This document shows positions 1,772 to 43,282 of a DNA stretch of 59,025 nucleotides, in pieces (the first letter of the stretch is position 1; each line of letters begins with the position of its first letter). This DNA comes from Candidatus Limnocylindria bacterium (GTDB taxonomy: Bacteria; Chloroflexota; Limnocylindria; Limnocylindrales; CSP1-4). The notes below the pieces were generated by a model. The model saw only the letters and a list, made by a program, of their open reading frames with translations. It searched no databases and had not been told where the DNA came from. The stretch is taken from assembly GCA_035525825.1 (NCBI GenBank), contig DATLDP010000033.1, positions 1 to 59,025 of the forward strand, in the 5' to 3' direction. The position numbers and the translations under genes were made by a program.

Positions 1772-2830
1772 GTGGCCACGGACGCGGGCGCCCGCGCGCT
1801 TGCGGAGGCCGATCTCGCGGGCGTGGGCGAGGACGCGAGTGCTGCCCTCGTCACCCTCGAGGACATCCGCAGGGCAGCGGCGAATCTCGCCGGCGTGGCC
1901 ATCCGGACCCCGCTGCTCTCATTCGGGACCGCCGGTTCGGGCGGCCCGCGGGTGCTGCTCAAGGCCGAGTCGCTCCAGCCGATCGGCGCGTTCAAGATCC
2001 GCGGCGCCTACCACGCGATCGCCTCGCTGACGCCGGAGGAGCGGGCTCGCGGCGTCGTGACGCACTCCTCGGGCAACCATGCGCAGGGCGTCGCGCGGGC
2101 GGCGCGACTCCTGGGGGCAAAGGCCGTGATCGTGATGCCATCCGATGCGCCGGCGGTGAAGCGCCGCCGGGTCGAGGCGGACGGCGCGGAGGTGATCACC
2201 GTGGCTCCTGCCAGCAGCGCCCGCGAGGCAAAGGCGGAGGAGCTCATCCGCGAGCGAGGGCTGGTGTTCGTGCCGCCCTACGACGACGACCGGGTCATCG
2301 CGGGCCAGGGCACGGTCGGGCTCGAGATCGCCGAGGACGTTCCGGATCTCGCCGCCGTGCTGGTGCCGATCGGCGGGGGTGGCCTCTCCAGCGGCGTGGC
2401 GGTCGCGATCCGCGCCCTCCATCCGAACGCGAGGGTCCTGGGGGTCGAGCCGCAGGTCGCCGCCGACGCGCGGCAGTCGCTGCGCGAGGGCCGGATCGTG
2501 CGCTGGGACGCGGCGCAGACCGGGTCGACGATCGCGGACGGCGTTCGATCACAGGCGATCGGGCGGCGGCCGTTCGCCCACCTCTCGAAGCTGCTCGACG
2601 ATGTCATCACCGTGGCCGAGGCCGAGATCGCGGCGGGCGTCCGGCTGATCGCCGAGGAGGCGCGGCTGGTCGTTGAGCCGTCAGGCGCGGTGGCCCCTGC
2701 GGCCGCGCGCTTCCGGGCCGGCGAGGCGGGCATCGACGGCCTCACCGGGACGGTCGTCGCCGTCGTCAGTGGCGGCAACGTGGATCCGGAGCGCTACCTC
2801 GCGCTGCTGGAGTCGCCGCTCCCCGGCTGA
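1772..2830 (+). CDS. PLP-dependent threonine/serine dehydratase (catabolic type, no ACT domain)
   Basis: KAESLQPIGAFKIRGA (PLP lysine), HSSGNHAQG, PIGGGGL, VEPSGA, SGGNVD. Start moved to the GTG just after the DksA-like stop. Confidence 0.9.
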   Translation: MATDAGARALAEADLAGVGEDASAALVTLEDIRRAAANLAGVAIRTPLLSFGTAGSGGPRVLLKAESLQPIGAFKIRGAYHAIASLTPEERARGVVTHSSGNHAQGVARAARLLGAKAVIVMPSDAPAVKRRRVEADGAEVITVAPASSAREAKAEELIRERGLVFVPPYDDDRVIAGQGTVGLEIAEDVPDLAAVLVPIGGGGLSSGVAVAIRALHPNARVLGVEPQVAADARQSLREGRIVRWDAAQTGSTIADGVRSQAIGRRPFAHLSKLLDDVITVAEAEIAAGVRLIAEEARLVVEPSGAVAPAAARFRAGEAGIDGLTGTVVAVVSGGNVDPERYLALLESPLPG

Positions 2831-3864
2831 CCGGAGGGTCCGGCCGAACCACCCGCGGCGGCCGTGGCGGCCTCGTTCGCCCGCCGTCGCTCGAGGCGAT
2901 CCGCGCGGTCCCGCAGCGCCGCCCGCTGCGTGTCGGCCCGGCGCTCAGCCGCCACCGTGTCGCGCGTCTCGTGGCGCATCCACGCCGCGACGATCATGAG
3001 CACCCCGACGATGAAGACCACGTCCCCGCCGAGCCACATGATCCCGCCGGCAAGCTGCTGGTCCGCCAGCGGCGCGATCCCGTACGGCGCGCCCAGCGAC
3101 GCGTAGTGGCCATACAGGGGAGCGGGCGCAAACAGGATCGCTACGCCCAGGAACGAGTTGAGCGGGAACTGGAGCAGCAGGTACAGGACCCGCGCCGGGT
3201 AGCCCATCCGGCGTCGCGCGGGATCGGCCGCGATCGCGGGCCACCAGAACAGCAGCGCGGTCCCGAGATAGAGCGCGTGCTCCAGCTCGTGGACTTCCCC
3301 ATTCTCGAGGGCCAGGTCGAACAGGAGCGAGAAGTGGCTGACCCACATCACGACGGTGAAGGCCAGCCAGGCGACCACCGGGTGCCCGATCGCGCCGACG
3401 GCCGTTGAGTGAAGCACCGGCAGCAGGACCCGCCGACGGGCGTCCGGCGTCGCCACTCGGAGGAGCTGCGTCACCGGCGCGGCGAGGACCAGCAGCGGCG
3501 CCGCGATGAACAGCAGGAGGAGGTGCTGGACCATGTGGATCGAGAACAGCGTGGTGTCGTAGCGCCCGATCCCAGAGAGCAGCGCCACGGCGATCGCAGC
3601 GAGCCCGCCGAACCACGCCGCGGACCGACCGAGCGGCACCGGCGTGTCCGGGTGCGCAATGGCGATCCGCCGGACCAGCCAGATCCAGCCCGGCGCCGCC
3701 GCGAACAGCCCGATCGCGACCAGGGGCTCCAGATGCCAGCCGAAGGCGAGATTCGCAAAGGACGGTGGGTCCGGCGGAACGGAGCCATGCGCCACGGCCG
3801 TTCCCGGGACCGCCGCGGCGATGAGCATCGCGGTCGGGACGAGGAAGGTGAGGCGCCGGGTCAC
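2794..3864 (-). CDS. ctaG: Cytochrome c oxidase assembly protein, caa3-type CtaG family
   Basis: FSIHMVQHLLLLFIAAPLL, VHELEH and DQQLAGGIMW motifs; divergent from the cox operon. GTG start at 3864 inferred. Confidence 0.85.
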   Translation of the reverse strand: MTRRLTFLVPTAMLIAAAVPGTAVAHGSVPPDPPSFANLAFGWHLEPLVAIGLFAAAPGWIWLVRRIAIAHPDTPVPLGRSAAWFGGLAAIAVALLSGIGRYDTTLFSIHMVQHLLLLFIAAPLLVLAAPVTQLLRVATPDARRRVLLPVLHSTAVGAIGHPVVAWLAFTVVMWVSHFSLLFDLALENGEVHELEHALYLGTALLFWWPAIAADPARRRMGYPARVLYLLLQFPLNSFLGVAILFAPAPLYGHYASLGAPYGIAPLADQQLAGGIMWLGGDVVFIVGVLMIVAAWMRHETRDTVAAERRADTQRAALRDRADRLERRRANEAATAAAGGSAGPSGQPGSGDSSSAR

Positions 3865-4021
3865 GCCGTCATGGTGGCACGGCGTGCGCATGCGCCCCAC
3901 GATCGTGCTCGCGCTATGATGGCCCTCGGTCGGCCGAGGTTTGGTCGGCCGTTCCCGTGCCCGCCCGGTGCGCCATCACCCCGCTGCCGGGCACCGGTCC
4001 CGCCGACGCACTCGAGGAGCC

Positions 4022-5128
4022 ATGTCGACCAGTCCGAGGAAGCCCCCCGCCCCCGGAGCGATCGTCGCCGGTGGTGCCGTGCTCCTCCTGATCGCCATCG
4101 TCGGGATCGTGCTCCTGAGCCCTGCCGGCTCGGCGCTGTATCCGCCGCCGCCCGCCACTGCCCAGGCGCGGGAGATCAGCCAGCTCTACGACATCATCTT
4201 CGCCATCGCCGTGGTGGTCTTCCTCGTCGTCGAGGGCCTGATCGTCTGGAGCATCTTCCGGTACCGCCGGCGCCCGGGCGACACGGACCTGCCGCCCCAG
4301 ACCCACGGCAACAACCTGGTCGAGGCGCTCTGGACGCTCATCCCGACCGTGCTCGTGATCTTCATGTTCGCGATCTCGTGGCAGACCCTCGATCACGTTG
4401 ACGCGGTCAGCGCGGACCCGGACGTCCACATCAACGCCCTGGCGGGCCAGTTCCAGTGGCAGTTCCAGTACCTCGACAAGGACGGCAACGTCCTCGCGAC
4501 CCAGCGCCGAGCGGTCGGCGACGGCGGCGGCATGGCCGTGCCGGTCGCCAAGTCGGTCTACGTGACGCTCGAGAGCCGGGACGTCATCCACGCCTGGTAC
4601 GTCCCGCGGTTCCTCTTCAAGCGCGACGTCGTCCCGGGCCAGCAGAACCACTTCGAGTTCAAGGTGGACGAGGCCGAGGCCGGCCAGACGTTCCACGGCC
4701 AGTGCGCGGAGCTCTGCGGTACCGGCCATCGGGCGATGCTCTTCGACGTCGTGGCCATGGCCCCGGCGGACTACGACGCCTGGCTGGCGAAGCTGGTCGA
4801 GGCGGCCAATGCGACGCCGCCTCCGGCGCCGTCCGGCGCAGCCGTGATCGACCTGGCGGCGCAGGCCATCGCCTACGACAAGAAGACGCTCGATGCCCCG
4901 GCGGACGCACCGTTCGTCATCGCCTTCAAGAACGGCGACCCCGAGACCATCACCCACGACGTCGACATCAAGGGTGCCGACGGCGCCGTGATCGCCAACC
5001 AGGAGCCCATCGCGGGCGGCACCACCGGCCAATACCAGTACCAGCCGCTCGCGGCCGGCACGTACCAGTTCTTCTGCTCGATCCATCCCGGCGTGGCCGC
5101 GATGGAAGGCACCCTGACGGTGAAGTGA
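4022..5128 (+). CDS. ctaC: Cytochrome c oxidase subunit II with C-terminal type-1 cupredoxin domain
   Basis: Two TM helices; CuA ligands DVIHAW...CAELCGTGHRAM; P/A linker; then H(DV)...CSIHPGVAAM. SD gaggag precedes ATG 4022. Confidence 0.93.
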   Translation: MSTSPRKPPAPGAIVAGGAVLLLIAIVGIVLLSPAGSALYPPPPATAQAREISQLYDIIFAIAVVVFLVVEGLIVWSIFRYRRRPGDTDLPPQTHGNNLVEALWTLIPTVLVIFMFAISWQTLDHVDAVSADPDVHINALAGQFQWQFQYLDKDGNVLATQRRAVGDGGGMAVPVAKSVYVTLESRDVIHAWYVPRFLFKRDVVPGQQNHFEFKVDEAEAGQTFHGQCAELCGTGHRAMLFDVVAMAPADYDAWLAKLVEAANATPPPAPSGAAVIDLAAQAIAYDKKTLDAPADAPFVIAFKNGDPETITHDVDIKGADGAVIANQEPIAGGTTGQYQYQPLAAGTYQFFCSIHPGVAAMEGTLTVK

Positions 5129-5138
5129 GGAGGCAGCG

Positions 5139-6854
5139 ATGGCCACGCACGCCCTGAGCCCGGCTGCCGTCCCCGCCTACCGCGGCGGCATCTACGAGTG
5201 GCTGACCACGACCGATCACAAGAAGATCGGGATCATGTACGTGATCAACTCGTTCCTGTTCTTCCTGGTCGGCGGCATGTTCGCGCTGCTCGTCCGGACG
5301 GAGCTGGCGCAGCCCGGGATCCAGTTCTTCACCAACGAGCACGTCTACAACGAGTCGTTCTCGATCCATGCGACCGTGATGATCTTCCTGTTCATCATCC
5401 CGATGCTCGCGGGCCTCGGGAACTACGCGGTCCCGCTGATGATCGGCGCGCCGGACATGGCGTTCCCGCGGATCAATGCCCTGTCGTTCTGGATGTTGCC
5501 GCTCGGCGGGATCCTGCTGCTGATGGGCTTCCTGGTCCCAGGCGGCGCGGCCGCGGCCGGCTGGACGAGCTATCCCCCACTGTCCGAGCGAGGCGCGCTG
5601 TCGTCGCCAGGTGCGGGCCAGGACCTCTGGATCGTGGCACTGATCCTGATCGGCACGAGCTCGATTCTCGGCGGCATCAACTTCCTCGTGACGATCTTCA
5701 AGATGCGCGCGCCCGGGATGACCCTGTTCCGGATGCCGATCATGGTCTGGACCATTCTCGTGACCAGCGTGCTCGTCGTCATGGCGACGCCGGTCATCAC
5801 GAGCGCCCTGGTTATGCTCTTCATCGACCGGAACTACGGCGGCTCGTTCTTCAACCCGGAGACCGGCGGCACGGCCGTGCTCTACCAGAACGTGTTCTGG
5901 TTCTACTCGCATCCCGCCGTGTACGTCATGGTCCTGCCCGCGATGGGCGTGATCAGCGAGGTCCTGCCGGTCTTCAGCCGGAAGCCGCTGTTCGGCTACA
6001 AGGCGTTCATCTTCGCGACCGCCGGCATCGGCGCCCTCGGGTTCTCTGTGTGGGCCCACCACATGTTCACGACGGGCGCGGTGTTCCTGCCGTTCTTCGC
6101 GCTGATGACGTTCTTCATCGCCGTCCCGACCGGCGTGAAGATGTTCAACTGGGTCTTCACGATGTTCCGGGGCCAGCTGACATTCTCGACCCCGCTCATC
6201 TTCGCGATCGGCTTCCTGACGATGTTCCTGATCGGCGGCATCAACGGCGCCTTCAGCGCAGCCGTCCCGGTCGACTTCGCCCTCCATGACACCTACTGGG
6301 TCGTCGCCCACCTCCACTACGTCCTCTTCGGCGGCTCCGTGTTCGGCGTCTTCGCCGGGCTCTACTACTGGTTCCCGAAGATGACCGGCCGGATGCTCGA
6401 TGAAGGGCTCGGCAAGGTCCACTTCGCCCTGATGTTCATCGGCTTCAACCTGACGTTCTTCCCGATGCACATGCTCGGCATCAAGGGCATGCCCCGGCGG
6501 ATCGCGGACTACGCCTCCACCGCGGGCTGGAACGACTGGAACCTCCTGGCAACCGTCGGCGGCTTCCTGATCGGCATCTCGATGCTGCCGTTCATCTGGA
6601 ACGTCTTCGTCTCGCTGCGGAACGGCAAGGTCGCCGGCGACGATCCATGGGAGGGCAACACCCTCGAGTGGGCGACCTCCTCGCCGCCGCCGCCGTACAA
6701 CTTCGATCGCCTGCCGGAGATCCGGTCGGAGCGGCCGCTGTTCGATGCCCGCCACGGGCTCGTCGCCCATGACACCAACGCTCCGCGCGAGGTGGAGGAC
6801 GGCCAGAAGGCCATCGGGGCAGGCCCGGGCGAAGGTCGCGAGGGCCAGGCGTGA
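5139..6854 (+). CDS. ctaD: Heme-copper oxidase subunit I, A2 type
   Basis: TTTDHKKIG, HATVMIF, YSHPAVY, WAHHMF and VVAHLHY ligand motifs; PDMAFPRIN D-channel segment; TGVK K-channel lysine. Confidence 0.97.
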   Translation: MATHALSPAAVPAYRGGIYEWLTTTDHKKIGIMYVINSFLFFLVGGMFALLVRTELAQPGIQFFTNEHVYNESFSIHATVMIFLFIIPMLAGLGNYAVPLMIGAPDMAFPRINALSFWMLPLGGILLLMGFLVPGGAAAAGWTSYPPLSERGALSSPGAGQDLWIVALILIGTSSILGGINFLVTIFKMRAPGMTLFRMPIMVWTILVTSVLVVMATPVITSALVMLFIDRNYGGSFFNPETGGTAVLYQNVFWFYSHPAVYVMVLPAMGVISEVLPVFSRKPLFGYKAFIFATAGIGALGFSVWAHHMFTTGAVFLPFFALMTFFIAVPTGVKMFNWVFTMFRGQLTFSTPLIFAIGFLTMFLIGGINGAFSAAVPVDFALHDTYWVVAHLHYVLFGGSVFGVFAGLYYWFPKMTGRMLDEGLGKVHFALMFIGFNLTFFPMHMLGIKGMPRRIADYASTAGWNDWNLLATVGGFLIGISMLPFIWNVFVSLRNGKVAGDDPWEGNTLEWATSSPPPPYNFDRLPEIRSERPLFDARHGLVAHDTNAPREVEDGQKAIGAGPGEGREGQA

Positions 6855-7486
6855 CCGCTGAAGCCCCGCCCATGACCGGCGCCGTTTCCCACGGGGATCC
6901 GCACGCCGCCGAAAGCGGCCACGCGCAGCGAGGCATCTCCAACCCGATCCTCGGGATGGCGCTGTTCATCACCTCCGAGGTGATGTTCTTCTCGGGCCTG
7001 TTCGCCGCCTACTTCGCGACTCGCGCGGCGAACCAGCCGTGGCCGCCGGAGGCCTTCGGGGAGCTCCTGGAGCCCCTCTCTCTGATCCTGGTCGCGACGA
7101 TCATCCTGATCCTGAGCTCGTTCACCTGCCAGTTCGCCGTCTGGTCCATCCGGAAGGGCGACCGGGCCGGGTTCATCCGGAACATCTCGATCACCTTCGT
7201 GCTCGGGATCATCTTCCTGGTCATGCAGATGTACGACTACAGCATCCTCTTCGGCGAGGGGATGACGCTCGGCTCCGGGCCGTTCGGGACGACCTACTAC
7301 ACGCTCACCGGCTTCCACGGCGCCCACGTCTTCGGTGGCGTCCTGATGCTCGGGGTGGTGCTGTACCGCGGCCTCGCCGGCCAGTTCTCGGCGAAGCACC
7401 ATGACGCGGTCGAGGCGGTCAGCCTCTACTGGCACTTCGTCGACGTCGTCTGGATTCTCCTCTTCTCGATCCTGTACCTGGTCTGA
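6851..7486 (+). CDS. ctaE: Cytochrome c oxidase subunit III (short form)
   Basis: LFITSEVMFFSGLF, YYTLTGFHGAHV, SLYWHFVDVVW; GTGA overlap with ctaD. Confidence 0.95.
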   Translation: MTAEAPPMTGAVSHGDPHAAESGHAQRGISNPILGMALFITSEVMFFSGLFAAYFATRAANQPWPPEAFGELLEPLSLILVATIILILSSFTCQFAVWSIRKGDRAGFIRNISITFVLGIIFLVMQMYDYSILFGEGMTLGSGPFGTTYYTLTGFHGAHVFGGVLMLGVVLYRGLAGQFSAKHHDAVEAVSLYWHFVDVVWILLFSILYLV

Positions 7487-7499
7487 GGGGGAACGAGAC

Positions 7500-7685
7500 A
7501 TGCCCGGTCGACATCTCGCCGCCATCATCATCGCGATCAGCTGCGTGGTCCTCGGCGTCCTCTACGGCGCCCTCGCGCCCGTCTTCGGCTACCGCATCGA
7601 GTGGGCCGGCGTCACGATGCTGATCGCGCTCGGTGCCGCCCTCGGCCTCATGGTGTTCGTCCTCGACACCGGGCACCGCGAGTAG
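7500..7685 (+). CDS. Small two-TM membrane protein resembling the N-terminal half of actinobacterial oxidase subunit IV (CtaF)
   Basis: 61 aa with two hydrophobic helices; IEWAGVTMLIALG recalls the CtaF EWAGT motif; in-operon position. Confidence 0.6.
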   Translation: MPGRHLAAIIIAISCVVLGVLYGALAPVFGYRIEWAGVTMLIALGAALGLMVFVLDTGHRE

Positions 7686-7698
7686 CGGGCTCCTGCCG

Positions 7699-8787
7699 AT
7701 GGAGCCGACCGCCAGTTCCAGGACCCTCCTCGACACGCTGCTCGAGGCGGCCGCGGTCGTCATCACCCCGAACTGGAACGAGCTGCTGCTCCTGATCCCG
7801 ATCGGGCTGCTCCTCCTCTTCCTCGCCTGGTTCATGCTGACGCTTCGCAGGTTCGCGACCGTCGGCCCCCGACGCCGGGAGCCGGCGCGGATCCAGCCGC
7901 TGACGCCCGCCAACGTCCACATGCCGGGCGGCTCGCTCGCCCCGATCCTGGTCGCGGTGGGCGCGGCATCGCTGTTCGCCGGCCTGATCATCGGTGGCGT
8001 CGCGCTGCTGCTGGGTGTCATCGCGCTCGTGATCACGATGCTCGCCTGGTTCCGCGAGGCGATGCAGGACTACGACCACCTGGAGCCCGCGAACCGGCTG
8101 CCGGCCGTGGTCCACGAGGGCCCGCCGCCCGGCGTCCACATGCCCGGGCCATCGATCCGCCCGCTCCTGGGGGCGCTCGGCTCCGCGGCGCTGCTGGGCG
8201 GCCTCGTGATCGGTGGCTGGGTGCTGATCCTCGCGGTCATCTTCCTCGTCTACACCCTCATCGGCTGGCTGGTCGACGCGACCGCCGAGTACCGCAAGGT
8301 CGAGGAGGCGGACAAGACCGGCCATCTCGAGAACATCCCGGACCGGCGGCTGCCGATGCGCACGCTCCAGGTCTTCGCCGTCCTGTTCGCCCTGCTGACG
8401 ATGGCCCAGCTCGGGATCTTCCCGCCGACCGCGCCGGCCACGGCCGGTGGCCCCGGCGGCTCCCCTGCCCCATCCGGCGCCGGCGGCCCCGTGGCGCCTC
8501 CGGGCTCGCTCCAGCTGGTCGCGTCGGGCATCTCCTACGACCAGAAGTCCCTCACGGCGCCCGCGGACCAGCCGATCACGTTCTTCCTGGTGAACAAGGA
8601 TCCGGCCTCCACTCCGCACGACGTGGAGCTCCACAACGCGGACGGCACGCCGATCAAGCCGGTCCCCGAGACGCCCGGCGGAGAGTCGATGGCCTACCAG
8701 TACGACCCGCTGCCGGCCGGCGACTACACCTACATCTGCTCCATCCACCCAATCCCCGCGATGACGGGGACGCTCACGGTCCAGTAG
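7699..8787 (+). CDS. Multi-TM putative oxidase accessory subunit with duplicated HMPxxS hairpin modules and C-terminal type-1 cupredoxin
   Basis: VHMPGGSLAP (7918) and VHMPGPSIRP (8137) are each followed by two TM helices. C-terminal PHDV...ICSIHPIPAM. Confidence 0.8.
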   Translation: MEPTASSRTLLDTLLEAAAVVITPNWNELLLLIPIGLLLLFLAWFMLTLRRFATVGPRRREPARIQPLTPANVHMPGGSLAPILVAVGAASLFAGLIIGGVALLLGVIALVITMLAWFREAMQDYDHLEPANRLPAVVHEGPPPGVHMPGPSIRPLLGALGSAALLGGLVIGGWVLILAVIFLVYTLIGWLVDATAEYRKVEEADKTGHLENIPDRRLPMRTLQVFAVLFALLTMAQLGIFPPTAPATAGGPGGSPAPSGAGGPVAPPGSLQLVASGISYDQKSLTAPADQPITFFLVNKDPASTPHDVELHNADGTPIKPVPETPGGESMAYQYDPLPAGDYTYICSIHPIPAMTGTLTVQ

Positions 8788-8833: not shown

Positions 8834-9430
8834 GTGATCGGGCTCGTGATTGCGGCGATCGCGACGTTCAGCCTCGTCCAGGTCCGGGCCGCGCTGGACC
8901 GGGCGGAGGCCACCCCAGGCCCGTTCATCGAGCGGGGCAAGGCGGCGCCGCCCATCGTCGGCCGAACGCTCGACGGGGAAACCTTCGACCTGGCGGCCCT
9001 GCGTGGGACCCCGGTGATCGTCAACTTCTGGGGCCCGAGCTGCATCCCCTGCCGCGACGAGTTCCCCCTCTTCAAGACGAAGCTCACCGAACTGGGAGCG
9101 GCGAATCTCGCCATCGTCGGCGTGCTCATGGACGACCCCGTCGCGCCGGCGCGGGACTTTGTCACCGAATACGGCGCGAGCTGGCCCACGGTCGAGGATG
9201 GATCCGGCGCGATCCGGGCGGTGTATCGCGTCGCCGCGCGACCGCAGTCCTACTTCATCGATCGCGAGGGCGTCCTCCGCGCGATCCAGGTCGGCCAGCT
9301 CACCGATGCCGAGTTCGCGCGGCAGTACGCGCTCATCTCGGGTGAGGCGGCCCCGGTCGTTACGGCGACCCCCGGTGGGTTCGGCAGCCAGAAGCCGTTC
9401 GGCAGTCGCGAGGTCCCGCCACCCCCATGA
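8834..9430 (+). CDS. Membrane-anchored TlpA/ResA-like thiol-disulfide oxidoreductase
   Basis: N-terminal TM; VIVNFWGPSCIPCRDEFP (CxxC); PQSYFIDREG cis-Pro motif. Start uncertain (RRRR n-region lies upstream). Confidence 0.85.
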   Translation: MIGLVIAAIATFSLVQVRAALDRAEATPGPFIERGKAAPPIVGRTLDGETFDLAALRGTPVIVNFWGPSCIPCRDEFPLFKTKLTELGAANLAIVGVLMDDPVAPARDFVTEYGASWPTVEDGSGAIRAVYRVAARPQSYFIDREGVLRAIQVGQLTDAEFARQYALISGEAAPVVTATPGGFGSQKPFGSREVPPPP

Positions 9431-36024: not shown

Positions 36025-36453
36025 GTGAACGACCAGCGCATCGTCCAGGGCGGACGGTCGAAGGCCTACCGGCCGATCCCGGAGGCCGAGCGGCGCGCGG
36101 CAATCGAGGATGGCCTCGCGGCGTACCACCGAGGCGACTTCTTCCTGGCCCACGAGCTGCTCGAGCCGGCGTGGATGGGGACCGCGGACCTGCCCGAGCG
36201 GGAGCTGCTGCAGGGCCTGATCAAGCTCGCGGCTGCGTTCGTCCATGACGCCCGCTCGAACCCGCTCGGCATCCGAAAGAATCTCGCGGGAGCCCGGGAC
36301 CGGCTGGCGGAAGGGCTCTATGCGGGCTCGCGCGTCGGGATCGATGTCGTGGCGCTGATCGCCGCCGTCGATGCACGCCTGGGTGGTGCGATCGAGGTTG
36401 GCGACCCGCCGATCGAGATCCCGCCACAGGATCCGACCGCGGGCGGAGGCTAG
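36025..36453 (+). CDS. DUF309 family protein
   Basis: FFLAHELLEPAW and LQGLIKLAAAFVH. Confidence 0.85.
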   Translation: MNDQRIVQGGRSKAYRPIPEAERRAAIEDGLAAYHRGDFFLAHELLEPAWMGTADLPERELLQGLIKLAAAFVHDARSNPLGIRKNLAGARDRLAEGLYAGSRVGIDVVALIAAVDARLGGAIEVGDPPIEIPPQDPTAGGG

Positions 36454-37979
36454 GCCTCCTTCGGGGCCCGAGCTTCGCGTTCGGCCCTGCGGTTCCGCCA
36501 CCAGCCGGCCATCTTCTCGCGGTTGTTGAAGACCCAGCCGACCGCAACCAGGATCACGAAGTTGCCCGTGCCCACGCCCGCCGCGGCGAGGTAGCCGAGC
36601 TGCTGCCCGATCTCTCCGCCGATCTGGAGGCCCGGAACCACCAGGCCCACCAGCCCGAGCTGGAAGAACGGCGCCTGCGGGGCGAGGTTCGCGCGGTAGC
36701 CGCCGGTGGCGGGGGCGCCGTCCGCCTCGCCGCCGAGGACGTAAACGTTGACGCCGCTCACGACCGTGGCGCTGTCCACCACGCCCGCCGGCAGGTCGGT
36801 CTGATCCAGGTGACGCCAGCCATCGGCCAGGTCCCCGTTGGCATTCGGGAGGGCCCAGTACACCTCGCGCTTCGAGGCGATCCCGTCCGCGCCGCCCGCG
36901 ATGTAGAGCGCACCGTTGGCCACCCAGCCAGCGGCGCCACCGCGCGCACCGGGGAGGTTCGCGGCGTCATTAACGGCCCACTGGACGACCCCTTCGATGC
37001 CGCCGCTCGCCGCGGGGCTCGGGGCCGCTGCCGAAGCGCCCGGCGCCGCGCTGCCGGCAGCCGCCGCCGCGACGCCGTAGCTGGCGCGCTGGACGGTGGC
37101 GGTCGGTCCGTTGGCGTCGTTGCCGCCGAAGACCCACAGGTAGGTGCCCTCGAGGGCCATCGTCGCGTCGGCCACGGCGTGGAGCAATGGCGGCTGCTCC
37201 TTGAACTCGCCGAGGTTGCCGGAGGTGTCGATCGTGGACTTCCAGACCTTGGTGCTCGGCGCGCCGTTGGCGTCTCGCCCGCCCGCGATCACGATGCCGT
37301 CGGTCACGGCAACCGCGGAGGCGCCGGCCCGGGGCTCGGGAAGCTTGAGATCCGTCGCGTCCTCGCCGGTGCCGATCTTGGCCGGCTCCCAGGCCTTGAG
37401 CGCGCTGGTGTCGGGGTCCAGCCCGATCTTCCAGACTGTGTCCGTGGCGCCGCCGGGACCGGCCCCGCCGACCAGGTAGGCCGTTCCGGAGAGGATCGCG
37501 AGCGCGGCGTCGGCGCGGGCCTCCGGCAGGGCCGGACCCTCCGCCCAGGCGCCGAAGACGCCGTTCGCGACCTGGCTGACGTAGGTCGTCGCGACCGGCG
37601 CGTTGCCGTCGCTGCCGCCGATGTACAGGAGGTTCGTGCCGAGCTGGGCAGCCGCACCGTCGCTTCGCGCCGCGGGGAGCGCCACGTCGGCGGCCGTGCC
37701 CTGCCACGGGACCAGCGCGCCGGCGGGAACGGGGCACGGCATGTTCGTGCCGTTCTCCGGCGGGCAGAGGTTGACCGGCGACCAGCCGAGGATGCCGAGG
37801 TCGATCGTCCGTGAGACGACGAAGTAGTAGGCGCGATCCGGCACGTAGCCGAGGGCCATGATGATGACGAGGAGCCAGAACCCGGCCTTCGTCGTCGCCC
37901 AGCCCCAGCCCTCGGGATCGAACAGCCCGAACACGGGACGGCTCCGAACCGGTCGACCTGCGGGCAGCGCCTTGGCCAT
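36450..37979 (-). CDS. Membrane protein with six Kelch-like repeats between N- and C-terminal TM segments
   Basis: Repeats LYIGG, YLVGG, VIAGG, WVFGG, YIAGG and YVLGG, most preceded by LP.AR/LP.G; 2 nt downstream of the cytochrome c gene. Confidence 0.82.
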   Translation of the reverse strand: MAKALPAGRPVRSRPVFGLFDPEGWGWATTKAGFWLLVIIMALGYVPDRAYYFVVSRTIDLGILGWSPVNLCPPENGTNMPCPVPAGALVPWQGTAADVALPAARSDGAAAQLGTNLLYIGGSDGNAPVATTYVSQVANGVFGAWAEGPALPEARADAALAILSGTAYLVGGAGPGGATDTVWKIGLDPDTSALKAWEPAKIGTGEDATDLKLPEPRAGASAVAVTDGIVIAGGRDANGAPSTKVWKSTIDTSGNLGEFKEQPPLLHAVADATMALEGTYLWVFGGNDANGPTATVQRASYGVAAAAAGSAAPGASAAAPSPAASGGIEGVVQWAVNDAANLPGARGGAAGWVANGALYIAGGADGIASKREVYWALPNANGDLADGWRHLDQTDLPAGVVDSATVVSGVNVYVLGGEADGAPATGGYRANLAPQAPFFQLGLVGLVVPGLQIGGEIGQQLGYLAAAGVGTGNFVILVAVGWVFNNREKMAGWWRNRRAEREARAPKEA

Positions 37980-37981
37980 CG

Positions 37982-39046
37982 CTATTCGACCGTCAGGGTG
38001 CCGGTCATCGCCGGGATCGGGTGGACCCGGCAGATGAAGGTGTAGGTACCGGCCGCGAGCGGAGCGTAGGGATAGACGATCTGCTGGCCGCCGTCGATCG
38101 GCGCGGGATCCGAGATCGAGGTGCCGTCCGCGGCCTTGATCTGGACGTTGTGGGGCAGACCGGGCCCGTCCTGATTGTCGAGCGCGATGCCGAACGGCTT
38201 GTCAGCCGGGACGGTGAGCTCCTTCTTGTCGAACGCGACGCCGACCGCGACAAGGTCGACGACGGTGTCCTCCGGGCCGAGCGTCGCCACCGGTGCCGGT
38301 GTGCCGCCACCGCTCCCGGACCAGCACTCGGGCACGTCGGTGGCGTCGGCGGCGGGCTTGAACTCGTCATCGCGCCAACCCTTGAACGTCTCGACCTTGC
38401 CGTCTTCGCCGATGACCGGTTCGTTGAGCTCCGGGTCGCGCCGGGTGAACTCCTGGGTGCTCGGAGCACGGATGAAGGCGATCAGGTCCTCGATCTGGAT
38501 GTAGTTGAGCGGGCCGCCGTTCGTGTCGGCCCAGACCGGCATGAGGCTCTTGGGATTGCCGCAGACGTACCGCCCGCCGACCGTCAGGACGTTGTGGATG
38601 TACTGCTCGGACAGGTGCGAGAAGAGCTTCGCCTGGTCGTTGAGGACCGGGCCGATCCCGCCCTCGCCCTTGGCGCCGTGGCACCGCGCGCAGTTCGCCT
38701 CGTAGAGGTTGTAGCCGCGCTCGATGGACGAGACCTGCTGGGCGTTCTCCTGCGCCTCGAGCCGCGGCGTCGTCTCGATGATCGGGACCCCGAGCTCGTA
38801 GAAGTAGTAGATGATCACGAACAGGGCCACGATCGCGACGCCGAGGAACGCCACCCACCGGGCGTCACCCGTCTGGCGGACGATCTTGGCGGCGCGCTCC
38901 GACGTCAGCCCCGCGATCGCCCGGGTCTGGCGGGGCGCGGTGAAGCGCTCGGCGGACCGGGTGGGGGCGGTTTCGCTGGGCTCGCGGCGGGCGGGCAGGC
39001 TCCGCTCCGGCTGGCCCTCCCGCCGGTCCCTGGGCGAGTCGGTCAT
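37982..39046 (-). CDS. Membrane-anchored monoheme cytochrome c fused to a type-1 cupredoxin
   Basis: One TM; CARCH heme motif; SLMP likely axial Met; C-terminal PHNV...ICRVHPIPAM. Confidence 0.88.
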   Translation of the reverse strand: MTDSPRDRREGQPERSLPARREPSETAPTRSAERFTAPRQTRAIAGLTSERAAKIVRQTGDARWVAFLGVAIVALFVIIYYFYELGVPIIETTPRLEAQENAQQVSSIERGYNLYEANCARCHGAKGEGGIGPVLNDQAKLFSHLSEQYIHNVLTVGGRYVCGNPKSLMPVWADTNGGPLNYIQIEDLIAFIRAPSTQEFTRRDPELNEPVIGEDGKVETFKGWRDDEFKPAADATDVPECWSGSGGGTPAPVATLGPEDTVVDLVAVGVAFDKKELTVPADKPFGIALDNQDGPGLPHNVQIKAADGTSISDPAPIDGGQQIVYPYAPLAAGTYTFICRVHPIPAMTGTLTVE

Positions 39047-39717
39047 ATGCAGCCGGTTGGGGTCTTCGGCGGGATGATCCCCGGCTGGCCGACGGCGACC
39101 GGGAGCGGGCCAAGGGTGATCTTCGAGGTGTCCAGCGTCAGGATGCCCTCGGCGTCGACGGTGATTGCGAAGCGATCCATGCCGCGCGGCGCCGGGCCGT
39201 ACTGCGCGCCCTGGGCCTTGATCCCGAGGCGGTCATAGCGCGAGCCGTGGCACGGGCACTCGAACCAGTAGTTCTTGAGGCACGGGTTGGGCTTGCAGCC
39301 GAGGTGGGGGCAGCGCTGGTAGAGCGCGCGGACGTTGAGGGCGGTGCCGTCACCGGCTCGATCCTCGCCGGGCACGAACTCCTGGCGCGACGGGTCCACC
39401 AGCATGATGTAGGCCCGCGCGGCCTGGTAGTAGACCGGGAACCCGGTCGCGAACGGCAGCGACGTGTTCTGGGCCTTGATGTCGTCGATGGTCCCGATCT
39501 CGATCGTGCCGCCGAAGCCGCCGCGTGAGTTCGGCCACAGGAAGCCGATCGTGCCCGCCGCGACCTCCGTGAGCCAGAGGAGGGTCGCGCCGCCGATGGA
39601 GCGGCGCAGCAGCGTCCGCCGCGAGATCCCCTGGACGGGATCCTGGCGGAGCGAGCGAAGCGCCTGGGGCGTGAGGGCCTGGGGCTTCTCGGCGGGCTGG
39701 ACGTGGTAGTTGCTCAT
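39043..39717 (-). CDS. qcrA: Rieske 2Fe-2S subunit of a Rieske/cytochrome b complex
   Basis: SRRTLL twin-arginine-like segment plus TM; CPHLGC and CPCHGSRY boxes. Confidence 0.93.
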   Translation of the reverse strand: MSNYHVQPAEKPQALTPQALRSLRQDPVQGISRRTLLRRSIGGATLLWLTEVAAGTIGFLWPNSRGGFGGTIEIGTIDDIKAQNTSLPFATGFPVYYQAARAYIMLVDPSRQEFVPGEDRAGDGTALNVRALYQRCPHLGCKPNPCLKNYWFECPCHGSRYDRLGIKAQGAQYGPAPRGMDRFAITVDAEGILTLDTSKITLGPLPVAVGQPGIIPPKTPTGCI

Positions 39718-39725
39718 CGGTCAGT

Positions 39726-40352
39726 TCACAGTGCGAAGTGGAGGCCGTTGGTGAAGTTGTCGAAGAACGGCAGGTACGGCGTCACGAGGGAGTAGCCGGG
39801 CCCGCGGAAGAACACCCCGACGAAGGTGACCATCAGGCCGAGCGCGCACAGCAGCGTGAACAGCACGACCGCAGTCTTGCGATCCGAGGGCTTCTTCGCC
39901 TCGATGTTGGCCCGGTCGATGTACGGCAGCACGATCATGCCCAAGAGGATGTACAGGAACGGCACCAGCACGCCGGAGACGACCGGGTGGAAGTACGCGA
40001 GCAGCTCCTGGAGCCCGAGGAGGTACCACGGCGCCTTCGCGACCGGCGGTGTGACGTTGCCGTTCGCCAGGTCCTCGAGCGGGGCGTTGATGAAGAGGCC
40101 CATCAGGAGCAGGAAGATGCTCATGACCGTCGCGGCGAAGAACTCGATCGAGAGCAGGTGCGGCCAGGTCATGACCGTGTCGTCCGGTTCCTTCTGGACT
40201 CGAACGACCGCGTCCTGCTTGACCATCGCCAGCAGGCGGTAGGGCCGCGCGGACATCGGCACGCGCTGCTTGTCGATCTCCGTCCGACGGGTCGGATCGA
40301 CGGGCAGGACCTCGCGCGCGACGGGCTTCGTGTCGGTCTTCTGATCGCTCAT
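39726..40352 (-). CDS. Cytochrome b subunit IV-like protein (PetD / QcrC N-terminal type)
   Basis: TWPHLL, NAPLEDLAN, KAPWY (PEWY-equivalent), LPYID; three TM helices. Confidence 0.88.
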   Translation of the reverse strand: MSDQKTDTKPVAREVLPVDPTRRTEIDKQRVPMSARPYRLLAMVKQDAVVRVQKEPDDTVMTWPHLLSIEFFAATVMSIFLLLMGLFINAPLEDLANGNVTPPVAKAPWYLLGLQELLAYFHPVVSGVLVPFLYILLGMIVLPYIDRANIEAKKPSDRKTAVVLFTLLCALGLMVTFVGVFFRGPGYSLVTPYLPFFDNFTNGLHFAL

Positions 40353-40470
40353 GCAGCAGTACCCGACGGGCCGCTAGGACGGCCAGATGCAAGGCGCCGG
40401 CGAGCACCGGAACGAGCGGACGCCGACGTCCGTGAGCGAGAAGCGCAGGCGGCAACGCGGCAGATGGCTG

Positions 40471-41199
40471 TCATAGCGGACCGGAGATTCCGCCGTCTTT
40501 CCTGATGCGCCAGAAGTGGACGGCCAGGAAGATGGCGGCGACGAGCGGCAGGACCATGATGTGGAGCACGTAGAACCGGAGCAGCGTGTTCTGCCCGACC
40601 TCCAGTCCACCGAAGATCAGCGACTGGATGGGGGTGTTGATCACCGGCGTGTAGCTGGCCATGTTCAGGCCGATCGTGATGGCCCAGTAGCTGATCTGGT
40701 CCCACGGCAGCAGGTAGCCGGTGAAGCTCAGGGCGATCGTCATCAGCAGCAGGATCACGCCGACGACCCAGTTGAACTCCCGCGGCGGCTTGTAGGCCCC
40801 GTGGTAGAAGACCCGCATCATGTGCAGGAAGACGAAGAAGACCATCAGGTGGGCGCCCCACCGGTGGACGTTCCGGGTCAGCAGGCCGAACGCGACGCGT
40901 GACTGGATGTTCAGGATGTCCGTGTACGCGCTCCCGGTCGACGGGATGTAGAAGAACATGAGGTAGACGCCCGTCACGGTCAGGACGAGGAACAGGAAGA
41001 ACGACAGCCCGCCGAGGCAGAACGTGTACGCGAACTTGACCGCGTGCTGCCGGACCCGGACCGGGTGGAGGTGCAGGAAGACGTTGTTCATCACGGCGTA
41101 CGCGCGCGACCGCTCGTCCGTCGGGTAGGGGTTGCGGAAGAGCGACCGCCAAGCGGGGCTCCGGCGGATGGCCTGGTCCACCCGCTCGAGGAAGCTCAA
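40471..41199 (-). CDS. qcrB: Cytochrome b6-type subunit (4 TM) with heme ci cysteine
   Basis: FCLGG, HRWGAHLM...LHM, GYLLPWDQ, LH...VHF. TTG start with SD aggagg overlaps the upstream TGA. Confidence 0.93.
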   Translation of the reverse strand: MSFLERVDQAIRRSPAWRSLFRNPYPTDERSRAYAVMNNVFLHLHPVRVRQHAVKFAYTFCLGGLSFFLFLVLTVTGVYLMFFYIPSTGSAYTDILNIQSRVAFGLLTRNVHRWGAHLMVFFVFLHMMRVFYHGAYKPPREFNWVVGVILLLMTIALSFTGYLLPWDQISYWAITIGLNMASYTPVINTPIQSLIFGGLEVGQNTLLRFYVLHIMVLPLVAAIFLAVHFWRIRKDGGISGPL

Positions 41200-43034
41200 C
41201 GACCCATTCCTCCTGCGACGCCGGGCGTGCCGGCGAGCTGAGCGTCTCGGTACGACTCCTTGTAGAGCCGGCCATCGGTCGAGATCTCTTGCAGCTCGAA
41301 CCGCTCCATCGTAATGGCGTCGAACGGGCAACGCTTGACGCACAGCGCGCAGCGGATGCAGCGCTCCTCGTCGAGGATCATCGCGGCGCCGTCCTGCCAG
41401 CCGTAGGCCTCGTCCAGCTCGGTCAGGAGGCCCTCGGACTTGAGCTGGTTGATGTCGACCATGTGGATGACGCCCTCGGGGCAGACATCCGCGCACGCGC
41501 CGCAGAGGACGCAGCGGAACGGGTCGAACCAGATGTTGAAGTTGCACATGAGGCAGCGGGTTGACTCGGCGACGGCGGAGGTCGCGTCGTAGCCCTGCTC
41601 GACCTGGGTCGTGAAGTTGACGTCCGGGTCGGTGGACGGCATTCGCTCGGTCAGGGCCGTCATCGGGATGTGCTGGCGCGGCAGGACGTCGTAGAACTCG
41701 GGCATCTCGAACGCCCAGGTGCTGGTCATCTTGACGTTCGCCGCGACGGTCACGTCCGTGCGTCCGGCCAAGTAGCGGTCGATCGCGTACGCGGCCTTCT
41801 TGCCGTGGCCCGCTGCCTCGATGAGGGTCGTGGGGCCGGTCACGAAATCGCCGCAGGCGAAGACGCCCCGGACGTTCGTGGCGTAGGTCGCGGGATCCAC
41901 CTTCACGCGGCCGCGATTGACCTCGAAGTCCGCCTCGACCGGGAGGAACGTCAGGTCCGCGGCCTGCGAGACGGCCGGGATGACCGTGTCGGCCTTGATC
42001 ACGAACTCGGACCCGGGGATCGGCACCGGCGAGCGCCGGCCCGAGGCGTCCGGCTCGCCGAGCTTGTTCCGGATGAACTTGACGCCGGTCACGTGGCCGT
42101 TCTCGCCGAGCACCTCCACCGGGCTCGCGAGGAACTCCATGCGGACGCCCTCCCGCTCCGTCTCGCCGAGCTCCTCCTCGTCGACGACCAGCTCGGACCG
42201 CGTCCGGCGGTAGACGATCGCGACGTTCTCGGCGCCGTGCCGGAGCGAGGTTCGCGAGCAGTCCATCGCGGTGTAGCCACCGCCGATGACCACCACGTCC
42301 CTGCCGACCTCGATCGGCTCGCCGAGGTTGGCCTTCTTCATGAAGTCCACGCCGTACTGGACGCCCTCGAGGTCGCCACCCGGCACGTCGAGGGCCACGG
42401 CGTTCATCGCGCCGGCCGTGATCGCAACCGCGTCATGGTCGCTCTGGAGCTCGTCGAAGGTGATGTCGACGCCGATGTTGGTGTTGTAGTGGAAGGTCAC
42501 GCCGAGGCGCTCGACCAGCTTGATGTCCATCTCGATCGCCTCGCGCGGGAGGCGGAACGCCGGCACGCCGATGAGCATCGTCCCGCCGCCGTACGGCAGG
42601 CTGTCGTAGACGTCCACCCCATAGCCCTTCATCGCCAGCTCGCGGGCGACCGAGATGCCGGACGGACCTGCGCCGACGACCGCGACCTTCTCGGCCCGGG
42701 CCTCGATGTGGGGCATGACGTCAGGGATGCCCGAAGCCTCGTGCCACTCGACGAGGAAGCGCTTCATCGCCCGGATCGCAAGGGGCCGGTCGATGTCGCC
42801 GCGGCGGCAGGCGCGCTCGCACGGGGCGGAGCAGACATAGGAGCACATCGCGGCCACGGGGTTGGGCTCGCGGGAGAGGATGTAGCCCTCCTCGAAGCGG
42901 CCTTCCGCGGCAAGGTTCAGGTAGCCCCGGCAGTTCGTCCCGACCGGGCAGGCCTCCTGGCACTCGATGTTGCACTGGAGCCAGGAAGCATCGACCGGCT
43001 GGACGAGGAATTCCTGGCGGACGTCGAGGGTCAA
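41196..43034 (-). CDS. GltD/NfnB/DsrL-like NAD(P)H-dependent flavo-iron-sulfur oxidoreductase with C-terminal 2x[4Fe-4S] ferredoxin
   Basis: CQEACP, CSYVCSAPCERAC, GAGPSG, GGGYTAMD, YRRT, GDFVTGP, RCLMC and two CxxCxxCxxxCP motifs. Start uncertain (TTG 43034 after gaggt). Confidence 0.9.
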   Translation of the reverse strand: MTLDVRQEFLVQPVDASWLQCNIECQEACPVGTNCRGYLNLAAEGRFEEGYILSREPNPVAAMCSYVCSAPCERACRRGDIDRPLAIRAMKRFLVEWHEASGIPDVMPHIEARAEKVAVVGAGPSGISVARELAMKGYGVDVYDSLPYGGGTMLIGVPAFRLPREAIEMDIKLVERLGVTFHYNTNIGVDITFDELQSDHDAVAITAGAMNAVALDVPGGDLEGVQYGVDFMKKANLGEPIEVGRDVVVIGGGYTAMDCSRTSLRHGAENVAIVYRRTRSELVVDEEELGETEREGVRMEFLASPVEVLGENGHVTGVKFIRNKLGEPDASGRRSPVPIPGSEFVIKADTVIPAVSQAADLTFLPVEADFEVNRGRVKVDPATYATNVRGVFACGDFVTGPTTLIEAAGHGKKAAYAIDRYLAGRTDVTVAANVKMTSTWAFEMPEFYDVLPRQHIPMTALTERMPSTDPDVNFTTQVEQGYDATSAVAESTRCLMCNFNIWFDPFRCVLCGACADVCPEGVIHMVDINQLKSEGLLTELDEAYGWQDGAAMILDEERCIRCALCVKRCPFDAITMERFELQEISTDGRLYKESYRDAQLAGTPGVAGGMGR

Positions 43035-43282
43035 GGCGCGGCTGAACCTCAGTTCGTCGATGGCGGACGGTCGAACGATGGGGGCCGGCGATCCGGGAGC
43101 GGCCGGCAGGCGCAATCTACCATCCGCTCCCTTCCCACGCTCGCCGCACGCTCGGGACGTGCGTCTGCGAGCCCGGAATCGGGCCTGCGCGAAAGGTTGA
43201 CGCGGGCGTTCGCTCGCAGCTACGCTCCGGCGCAGCGACGACGCCCCCGGGTGGCGTTGGACTCCGAGGCATTGGATCCCGC

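Follow-up and report, generated by a model that had tools for sequence, protein, structure and literature searches.

A type-1 copper domain fused to oxidase subunit II in Limnocylindria (Chloroflexota): a copper analogue of the caa3 design

Introduction

Some haem-copper oxidases have an electron entry module built into one of their own subunits. The known modules of this kind are haem-c domains, as in the caa3 and cbb3 oxidases, or the dihaem protein QcrC of the Actinobacteria. Where blue-copper proteins serve oxidases as donors, as do plastocyanin, AcoP, auracyanin, and, in SoxM, sulfocyanin, they are known as separate proteins. Can a blue-copper domain also be part of the CuA subunit itself, and what would it do there? 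This question is raised by a subunit II gene (CoxII/CtaC) at positions 4022 to 5128 (+) of a 59,025-nucleotide stretch of DNA, here called the window, from an uncultured soil bacterium of the Chloroflexota (Limnocylindria), the assembly of which comprises 2.3 Mb and is 80% complete. An initial annotation, made from the letters of the window, had described the product as a subunit II that carries a cupredoxin where caa3 oxidases carry cytochrome c, and had called it a copper analogue of caa3. Here, we describe the domain, its two paralogues in the respiratory chain of the same organism, its distribution and losses among relatives, and the path that electrons may take through it.

Subunit II ends in a cupredoxin with a complete ligand set

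The gene is one open frame of 368 codons that encodes a subunit II of 368 amino acids, assigned to an A2-type haem-copper oxidase with a C-terminal cupredoxin on the basis of Pfam, its relatives, and an AlphaFold2 (AF2) model. Pfam recognizes COX2_TM (PF02790) at residues 39-119 (E 1.8e-13) and COX2 (PF00116) at residues 164-240 (E 2.2e-14), followed by Cupredoxin_1 (PF13473) at residues 270-367 (E 6.9e-9), all above the curated cut-offs, and the protein belongs to the A family of COX2. The CuA domain (4424-4804) has all its ligands, namely the motif C228-x3-C232-x3-H236-x2-M239 together with H190 and E230 (codons of H190 at 4589-4591, C228 at 4703-4705, C232 at 4715-4717, H236 at 4727-4729, and M239 at 4736-4738), and the conserved tryptophan of this domain is W146 (4457-4459). 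A helix then leads to the Pro/Ala/Ser/Gly linker ANATPPPAPSGAA (residues 262-274, 4805-4843), and a comparable linker is found in every fused orthologue, with a median of ~17 residues when measured as a P/A/S/G/T window. The last part of the protein is an auracyanin-like type-1 copper domain (4829-5125) with the ligands H312 (4955-4957), C352 (5075-5077), H355 (5084-5086), and M361 (5102-5104), the last three of which form the loop C352-S-I-H355-P-G-V-A-A-M361, i.e., C-x2-H-x5-M. There are only three cysteines, 228 and 232 in CuA and 352 in the type-1 site, and no CxxCH (C..CH) motif anywhere in the 368 residues, as the initial annotation had read it. Translation probably begins at the ATG at 4022, because this codon is preceded at a distance of 6 nt by GAGGAG, which resembles a ribosome-binding site, and because the homologues, of 365-377 amino acids, share both this length and the N-terminus MSTSPRK. 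An upstream TTG at 3941, which would give 395 amino acids, was rejected since the homologues begin at MSTSPRK and the ribosome-binding site precedes 4022.

Conservation and fold point to a type-1 copper site

The fusion is not an isolated case, as PF13473, PF00116, and PF02790 occur together in 120 of the 120 best relatives (90%-identity clusters) from a search of 5.8 billion proteins. The names given at source to these 120 proteins are "cytochrome c oxidase subunit II" and no more, and thus the fusion is invisible in current annotation. In an alignment of 45 orthologues that reaches down to 40% identity, H312, C352, H355, and M361 are invariant, as are H190, C228, E230, C232, H236, M239, and W146 of the CuA domain. 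The spacing between the second histidine and the methionine varies by lineage (C-x2-H-x2..5-M) while the ligands stay in place, a pattern that is expected if the ligands themselves are under selection. Judged from these alignments, the architecture is far beyond what chance would produce.

The AF2 model of full-length CoxII (pLDDT, predicted local distance difference test, 86; pTM, predicted template modelling score, 0.78) has two helices, 47-81 and 98-126, and a beta domain. Its residues 1-250 superpose in Foldseek on CoxII of Paracoccus, of the Thermus caa3 oxidase (2yev_B), and of mycobacteria, with a template modelling (TM) score to the target of 0.74-0.77 against Paracoccus CoxII. Modelled alone (pLDDT 95.3, pTM 0.85), the tail forms an eight-stranded cupredoxin beta-sandwich, the best Foldseek matches of which are the auracyanins 6kol, 1qhq, and 2aan of Roseiflexus and Chloroflexus (TM 0.78-0.80, 24-25% identity); a Cupredoxin_1 protein of Bacillus comes next, and then azurins, plastocyanins, and amicyanins. 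The best profile matches in PDB are the tethered C-terminal cupredoxin of the three-domain nitrite reductase 6hbe and auracyanin A. By ligand set and predicted fold, the tail is a type-1 (blue) copper domain, which would be expected to bind copper.

The wider cupredoxin family numbers 8284 representatives at E <= 1e-3 in a 50%-identity representative library, which is not a count of CoxII fusions, and the ranking in this library is dominated by tandem multi-cupredoxin proteins. The closest family representatives (P0160-P0309) mostly carry the domain two to six times in tandem, and 19 of 146 match the MSMEG_3727 family associated with PQQ (pyrroloquinoline quinone).

One of three paralogous domains on complexes III and IV

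The genome encodes the same type of domain twice more. One copy ends a membrane protein similar to subunit IV (7699-8787, +; PF12270 + PF13473) in the oxidase cluster, and the other follows a linker at the end of a membrane-anchored monohaem cytochrome c (37982-39046, -; PF00034 + PF13473), which is the exit subunit of a b6-type Rieske complex (complex III) encoded 33 kb from the CoxII gene. The three cupredoxins are 47-53% identical to each other, the CoxII domain being 47% identical to the subunit-IV-like copy and 53% to the cytochrome c copy, and none of the four type-1 ligands varies in any of the three paralogue groups. They sit on subunits of complexes III and IV only, and no further close paralogue of the CoxII cupredoxin was found elsewhere in the 2.3-Mb assembly. 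In a tree of the domain, the three respiratory groups form one cluster (SH-aLRT, Shimodaira-Hasegawa-like approximate likelihood ratio test, 94) apart from the free cupredoxins of the genome, and copies on CoxII and on the subunit-IV-like protein are mixed according to lineage, in a short alignment in which many forks stay unresolved. Being mutual closest relatives and distinct from the free cupredoxins, the three domains have, as the tree suggests, co-evolved as partners. Therefore, the first description of the CoxII tail was right but partial: the domain is one of three paralogous copies and, as discussed below, its attachment to CoxII is dispensable in some relatives.

Other redox proteins of the organism are few on the haem side. 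The assembly contains one haem-copper oxidase, with no second copy found by tblastn, one Rieske/b complex, and, as the only match to PF00034, the fused cytochrome c; a gene for cytochrome c assembly of the CcsA type is present. Six open reading frames (ORFs) in a crude gene call contain CxxCH, one of which is the complex III subunit; the remaining ones were rejected as cytochromes, since by sequence they are the ribosomal proteins L31 and L32, a thioredoxin-domain protein, and two short ORFs that lack cytochrome features. Cupredoxin_1 matches number nine in the assembly, and include two lipoprotein cupredoxins, of 138 amino acids (contig C94, 21908-22324) and 159 amino acids (C32, 261-740), and a cupredoxin of 177 amino acids with a C-terminal membrane anchor (C39, 20881-21414). 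A further small putative cupredoxin has 146 amino acids (C64, 17903-18343). In one of the two lipoproteins an isoleucine replaces the axial methionine. In the periplasm of this organism, copper proteins abound and haem c is scarce.

Distribution, origins, and losses

Full-length relatives in the same operon were found in 14 species-level genomes titled Candidatus Limnocylindrales or Chloroflexota, except for one of the 14, the title of which is Dormiibacterota. One contig with the title Candidatus Dormiibacterota (L004, DASQIK010000051.1) contains the full operon of the Limnocylindria type, with 70% identity in CoxII, is nested in the Limnocylindria clade, and is probably mislabelled or misbinned. 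Outside the Limnocylindria, 14 of the 20 sampled CoxII of Chloroflexota have a tail of 117-202 amino acids with CxxCH after CuA, as does Nitrolancea, and the cupredoxin tails of 122-140 amino acids are attached at the same position. Within the phylum, the cupredoxin thus stands where caa3 oxidases carry cytochrome c, in line with the initial annotation.

A tree built on the CoxII core unites 27 sequences with a cupredoxin in one clade (97-99% support) and leaves the cytochrome-c-bearing CoxII outside it. Four CoxII that have no such tail also belong to this clade, and two of them are nested among fused ones and therefore represent losses of the domain. Five CoxII of a family of another class (f17), with a Copper-bind/Cupredoxin_1 tail, form a separate and fully supported clade, which suggests that the fusion either arose a second time or was transferred long ago. 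As a consequence, a single origin of the fusion was rejected as unproven, and from its sequences the fusion in f17 looks independent. In the loci of f17 (L033-L037), one operon comprises the genes for a Rieske protein, cytochrome b6, PetD, a three-haem cytochrome c, CoxII, and CoxI, so that complexes III and IV are encoded together, and the Copper-bind tail of this CoxII carries CTFHTAFNM.

The CoxII fusion is general in the Limnocylindria, and the three copies are not always found together. In the genus of the source genome and in most of its family (f1), CoxII, the subunit-IV-like protein, and the cytochrome c subunit all carry the domain, and in the order to which the source genome belongs, the fusions to the oxidase go together with that to cytochrome c. 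In a class-mate family (f3), only the CoxII copy is present and both the subunit-IV-like copy and the cytochrome c copy are absent. The reverse is true for the 1.1-Mb genomes of the sister family f2, where CoxII has a short tail that lacks cysteine, and for one genome of the own family (G154), where the linker is kept and the domain lost; in both cases the subunit-IV-like protein and the cytochrome c subunit retain their copies. The genera g6 and g7 of f1 lack CoxII altogether as well as the cytochrome c subunit, and as this holds for the near-complete genomes G180, G198, G207, G216, G234, and G265, it suggests that the whole aerobic III-IV module has been lost within the family. In-frame TGA codons in genome matches of f3 were considered as possible recoding, which was rejected: in the three CoxII-paralogue matches that were checked, such a codon merely terminates a second CoxII of the plain type, and the alignment had read through it.

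In the streamlined sister family (L050, G019:C2), the CoxII tail has 68 residues and ends in ...GNYVVMSNITGHFAQGMYADLVVV. It resembles the end of a cupredoxin, namely its last two strands, with a replaced cysteine and no N-terminal half, gives a weak match to SoxE (E 0.005), and may be a remnant of the lost domain. The tail of 45 residues in G154 (L052, G154:C39) stops in the Pro/Ala/Ser linker, with subunit I beginning ~120 nt later, and looks like a clean deletion of the domain in a genome that retains the subunit-IV copy. In both of the lineages that lost the domain from CoxII, the subunit-IV copy is still there. The tether is thus on CoxII only in f3, on the subunit-IV-like protein only in G019 and G154, and on both in other relatives: the oxidase nearly always retains at least one tethered cupredoxin, and it is the anchoring subunit that varies. 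Such an interchangeable tether point fits a module that needs proximity to the oxidase and not a fixed geometry.

A probable tethered relay into CuA and its alternatives

From the architecture, ligand conservation, fold, distribution, and paralogy of the domain, and from the genome inventory, all of which were observed, we infer that it binds copper, as well as the direction, the partners, and the rates of electron transfer: the CoxII cupredoxin is probably a tethered one-electron relay into CuA, with the cupredoxin of complex III as its likely donor. Located on the outer side like the CuA domain, it would be a built-in one-electron acceptor and would hand electrons to CuA, probably via W146, which we take to be the electron-entry tryptophan by carrying over the role of W121 in Paracoccus; from CuA they would move to haem a and the a3-CuB site. 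The positive-inside pattern puts the cupredoxin of the subunit-IV-like protein on the outside as well. Upstream, the most likely donor would be the b6-type Rieske complex, the only haem-c subunit of which ends in the paralogous tethered cupredoxin. The complete path could then run from quinol to the Rieske protein, haem c, and the type-1 copper of complex III, and on to the type-1 copper of CoxII and/or of the subunit-IV copy, and finally to CuA. In the caa3 oxidases, the fused cytochrome c domain plays this part.

A bolder version, which we regard as possible yet somewhat doubtful, is that in the aerobic chain of the Limnocylindrales, no diffusible carrier at all takes part between the Rieske/b6 complex and oxygen, and that one haem c and three tethered type-1 domains act as a copper wire. 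This would take place within an obligate III-IV supercomplex or through collisions of the tethered domains, and the anchor on the oxidase would be interchangeable.

Several observations weigh against the relay and its proposed donor. The CoxII copy has been lost in two lineages (L050 and L052), and is therefore not an obligatory path. The cytochrome c subunit of f3 carries no cupredoxin, so that a hand-over from copper to copper cannot be general for every CoxII fusion. The assembly, being 80% complete, might lack a soluble cytochrome c that was missed for this reason. At least five further cupredoxin-type ORFs are present, and the three of them that are confirmed as membrane-tethered single-domain proteins could be real shuttles, in which case the fused domain would be merely one of several entry ports. 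In addition, the sequence turns up in soil DNA runs only and the evidence is at the level of DNA.

Some of these observations favour the best surviving alternative, in which the fused domain is redox-active, yet serves as a port for diffusing, membrane-tethered free cupredoxins or other periplasmic donors, with no direct hand-over from complex III and no supercomplex. The two lipoproteins, the anchored cupredoxin, and the other PF13473 matches of the genome would supply such donors, the auracyanins themselves are mobile tethered carriers, and in f3 the CoxII fusion exists though the cytochrome c has no cupredoxin. However, the three respiratory domains are closer to each other than to any free cupredoxin, and the fusions to cytochrome c and to the oxidase occur together in the order of the source genome, which makes this alternative rather unlikely.

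Far less likely is a role of the domain as a copper chaperone or store for the assembly of CuA and/or CuB. Among the fold matches is the copper chaperone CupA (4f2e), at rank 24, and in the locus the CoxII gene is flanked on one side by the gene for the assembly factor CtaG and, further away on the other, by that for a TlpA-like protein of the thioredoxin fold. However, the top fold matches are electron carriers, the invariant His-Cys-His-Met set with its Cys-x2-His-xn-Met loop is the pattern of a redox type-1 site, and the domain is also found on the complex III cytochrome c, where there is no copper site to build.

A slightly slimmer chance still is given to the domain being the entry for an extracytoplasmic donor such as Fe(II) or Mn(II), as in rusticyanin and sulfocyanin, or a domain of another pathway that is parked on the oxidase. 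Acidophilic iron oxidizers use oxidase-bound blue-copper proteins in this way (PMC13741234), and the sulfocyanin model is also matched by 29 of the 146 family representatives. No iron-oxidation genes were seen within the window, however, and the strict pairing and co-loss with subunits of complexes III and IV points to an ordinary aerobic chain. Finally, it is hardly credible that the domain lacks a redox function and is either in decay or purely structural, since in spite of its disappearance from CoxII in two lineages, its ligands are invariant at 40% identity and across three host proteins, and the losses are confined to genomes that keep the subunit-IV copy. Of the readings considered, the tethered relay into CuA has the best support.

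The oxidase cluster and the complex III operon

The CoxII gene is preceded by a divergently transcribed gene for the assembly factor Caa3_CtaG (2794-3900, -; PF09678, E 2.8e-67), the presence of which next door had been correctly noted in the initial annotation, and which is syntenic in nearly all related loci. Caa3_CtaG is not confined to the caa3 oxidases, as the actinobacterial aa3 operons have it as well. Downstream of CoxII are the genes for subunit I (5139-6854, +; PF00115, E 3e-161) and subunit III (6851-7486, +; PF00510, E 1.9e-39). The translation of subunit I contains WFYSHPAVYV and hence the A2-type motif WFYSHPAV; we take the Tyr-Ser of YSHP to mark A2-type oxidases (the caa3 group) and GHPEV to mark the A1 type. 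A putative gene for a small membrane protein of 61 amino acids with two helices and no Pfam match (7500-7685, +) lies between subunit III and the subunit-IV-like gene.

The subunit-IV-like protein has ~6 helices, with an internally duplicated two-helix hairpin (VHMPGGSLAP and VHMPGPSIRP) and a sixth helix, and a Pro/Gly/Ala linker of 29 residues (8422-8508) before the cupredoxin, in which the motifs PHDVELH and CSIHPIPAM (8737-8763) are found. Its gene is syntenic in the loci of its own family and also present in the sister family. The last conserved gene of the cluster by synteny (8834-9430, +) encodes a protein of the thioredoxin fold that matches the AhpC/TSA-Redoxin family, and is probably a TlpA/ResA-like thiol reductase for the assembly of copper sites or haem c.

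Complex III is encoded on the other strand in an operon at 36450-43115 (-), the overall make-up of which is unusual. Its first gene (41196-43115) codes for a GltD/NfnB-like NAD(P)H flavo-FeS protein, and next come those of a cytochrome b6-like protein (40471 to ~41190, -, start not fixed), a protein similar to subunit IV/PetD (39726-40352, -), the Rieske protein (39043-39717, -) of the only Rieske/b complex found in the assembly, and the cytochrome c with its haem motif CARCH (38678-38692) and the cupredoxin motif CRVHPIPAM (38006-38032). The operon closes with a Kelch beta-propeller membrane protein (36450-37979), and the whole gene set is syntenic in a relative with a genome of 1.1 Mb (L051).

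Comparison with known systems

The closest counterparts are the caa3 (A2) oxidases of Thermus thermophilus (subunit IIc in PDB 2YEV), Rhodothermus marinus, and Bacillus (CtaC). They share with the present oxidase the A2 subunit I with YSHP and an extra redox domain of ~120-130 residues on the outer side, fused after the CuA domain; in addition, Caa3_CtaG is encoded adjacent to CoxII here, the CoxII core superposes on 2yev_B, and the sister CoxII of the phylum are of the caa3 type. In contrast, the fused domain of the caa3 oxidases is a haem c, and here it is a type-1 copper cupredoxin that lacks CxxCH; furthermore, subunits I and III are here encoded by separate genes, and a second tethered cupredoxin is found on the subunit-IV-like protein. 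As the class-I cytochrome c domain with CxxCH that defines caa3 is missing, CoxII-cupredoxin is an analogue of caa3 and not a member. With the A2 subunit I, the same position and size of the domain, a complete set of type-1 ligands, and the auracyanin-like fold, "copper analogue of caa3" is a fair description.

Among published cases, the one that comes closest is subunit IIa (CbaD) of the haloarchaeal ba3 (B-type) oxidases, to which a halocyanin is fused, as noted from sequence only (Prunetti et al. 2011, PMC3128077). Here as well, a blue-copper donor is covalently attached to a membrane subunit of the oxidase that it presumably reduces, which is closest to the fusion at 7699-8787, although the oxidase is an archaeal B-type enzyme, the cupredoxin of which lies on the N-terminal side of a single helix and not on the CuA subunit.

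From the same phylum, auracyanins A and B of Chloroflexus and the auracyanin of Roseiflexus (2AAN, 1QHQ, 6KOL) are membrane-tethered type-1 carriers, which are thought to connect the quinol oxidase ACIII to terminal acceptors. These are free-standing, with a lipid or helix anchor and a longer, azurin-like C-x4-H loop, whereas the CoxII domain is fused and has a C-x2-H-x5-M loop; it is a structural relative of auracyanin, not a member. The three-domain copper nitrite reductases (6HBE, 2DV6) share the principle of a cognate donor fused by a linker, and the cupredoxin of 6hbe even has CSIHP..M.G, but they belong to another enzyme and pathway and are soluble periplasmic proteins. In the three-domain nitrite reductases, tethered donors of the cupredoxin or cytochrome c type have been studied well (PMC13324648).

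The principle of a tethered donor is thus already known, and the CoxII-cupredoxin version is apparently undescribed. The initial annotation had considered that the architecture might be both widespread and characterised already. It is indeed widespread in metagenomes; its characterisation, or any description of the CoxII-cupredoxin fusion, was not found in open-access full text (PMC, bioRxiv), an absence that is no proof. The interchange of cytochrome c and cupredoxin, known for soluble carriers such as plastocyanin and cytochrome c6, has thus also taken place as a domain fusion to the CuA subunit, which offers a defined system for electron transfer from type-1 copper to CuA inside one polypeptide. 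It also suggests how an abundant uncultured lineage of soil and freshwater may respire with a single c-type cytochrome, and bears on the economy of iron versus copper.

The widest comparison is with the actinobacterial bcc-aa3 supercomplexes (6ADQ, 6HWH, 7QHM) and with the SoxM supercomplex of Sulfolobus with its sulfocyanin, in which a tethered domain connects complex III to CuA and no free carrier is needed. The core of CoxII resembles mycobacterial CtaC, and a PF12270 subunit-IV-like protein is present here as well. The bridge of the Actinobacteria, however, is the dihaem QcrC and the sulfocyanin of SoxM is a separate subunit, whereas the present system is known from its genes and any supercomplex would be hypothetical. 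If the copper wire is true, an abundant lineage of soil and freshwater would run a bacterial equivalent of the actinobacterial bcc-aa3 design that is built on copper.

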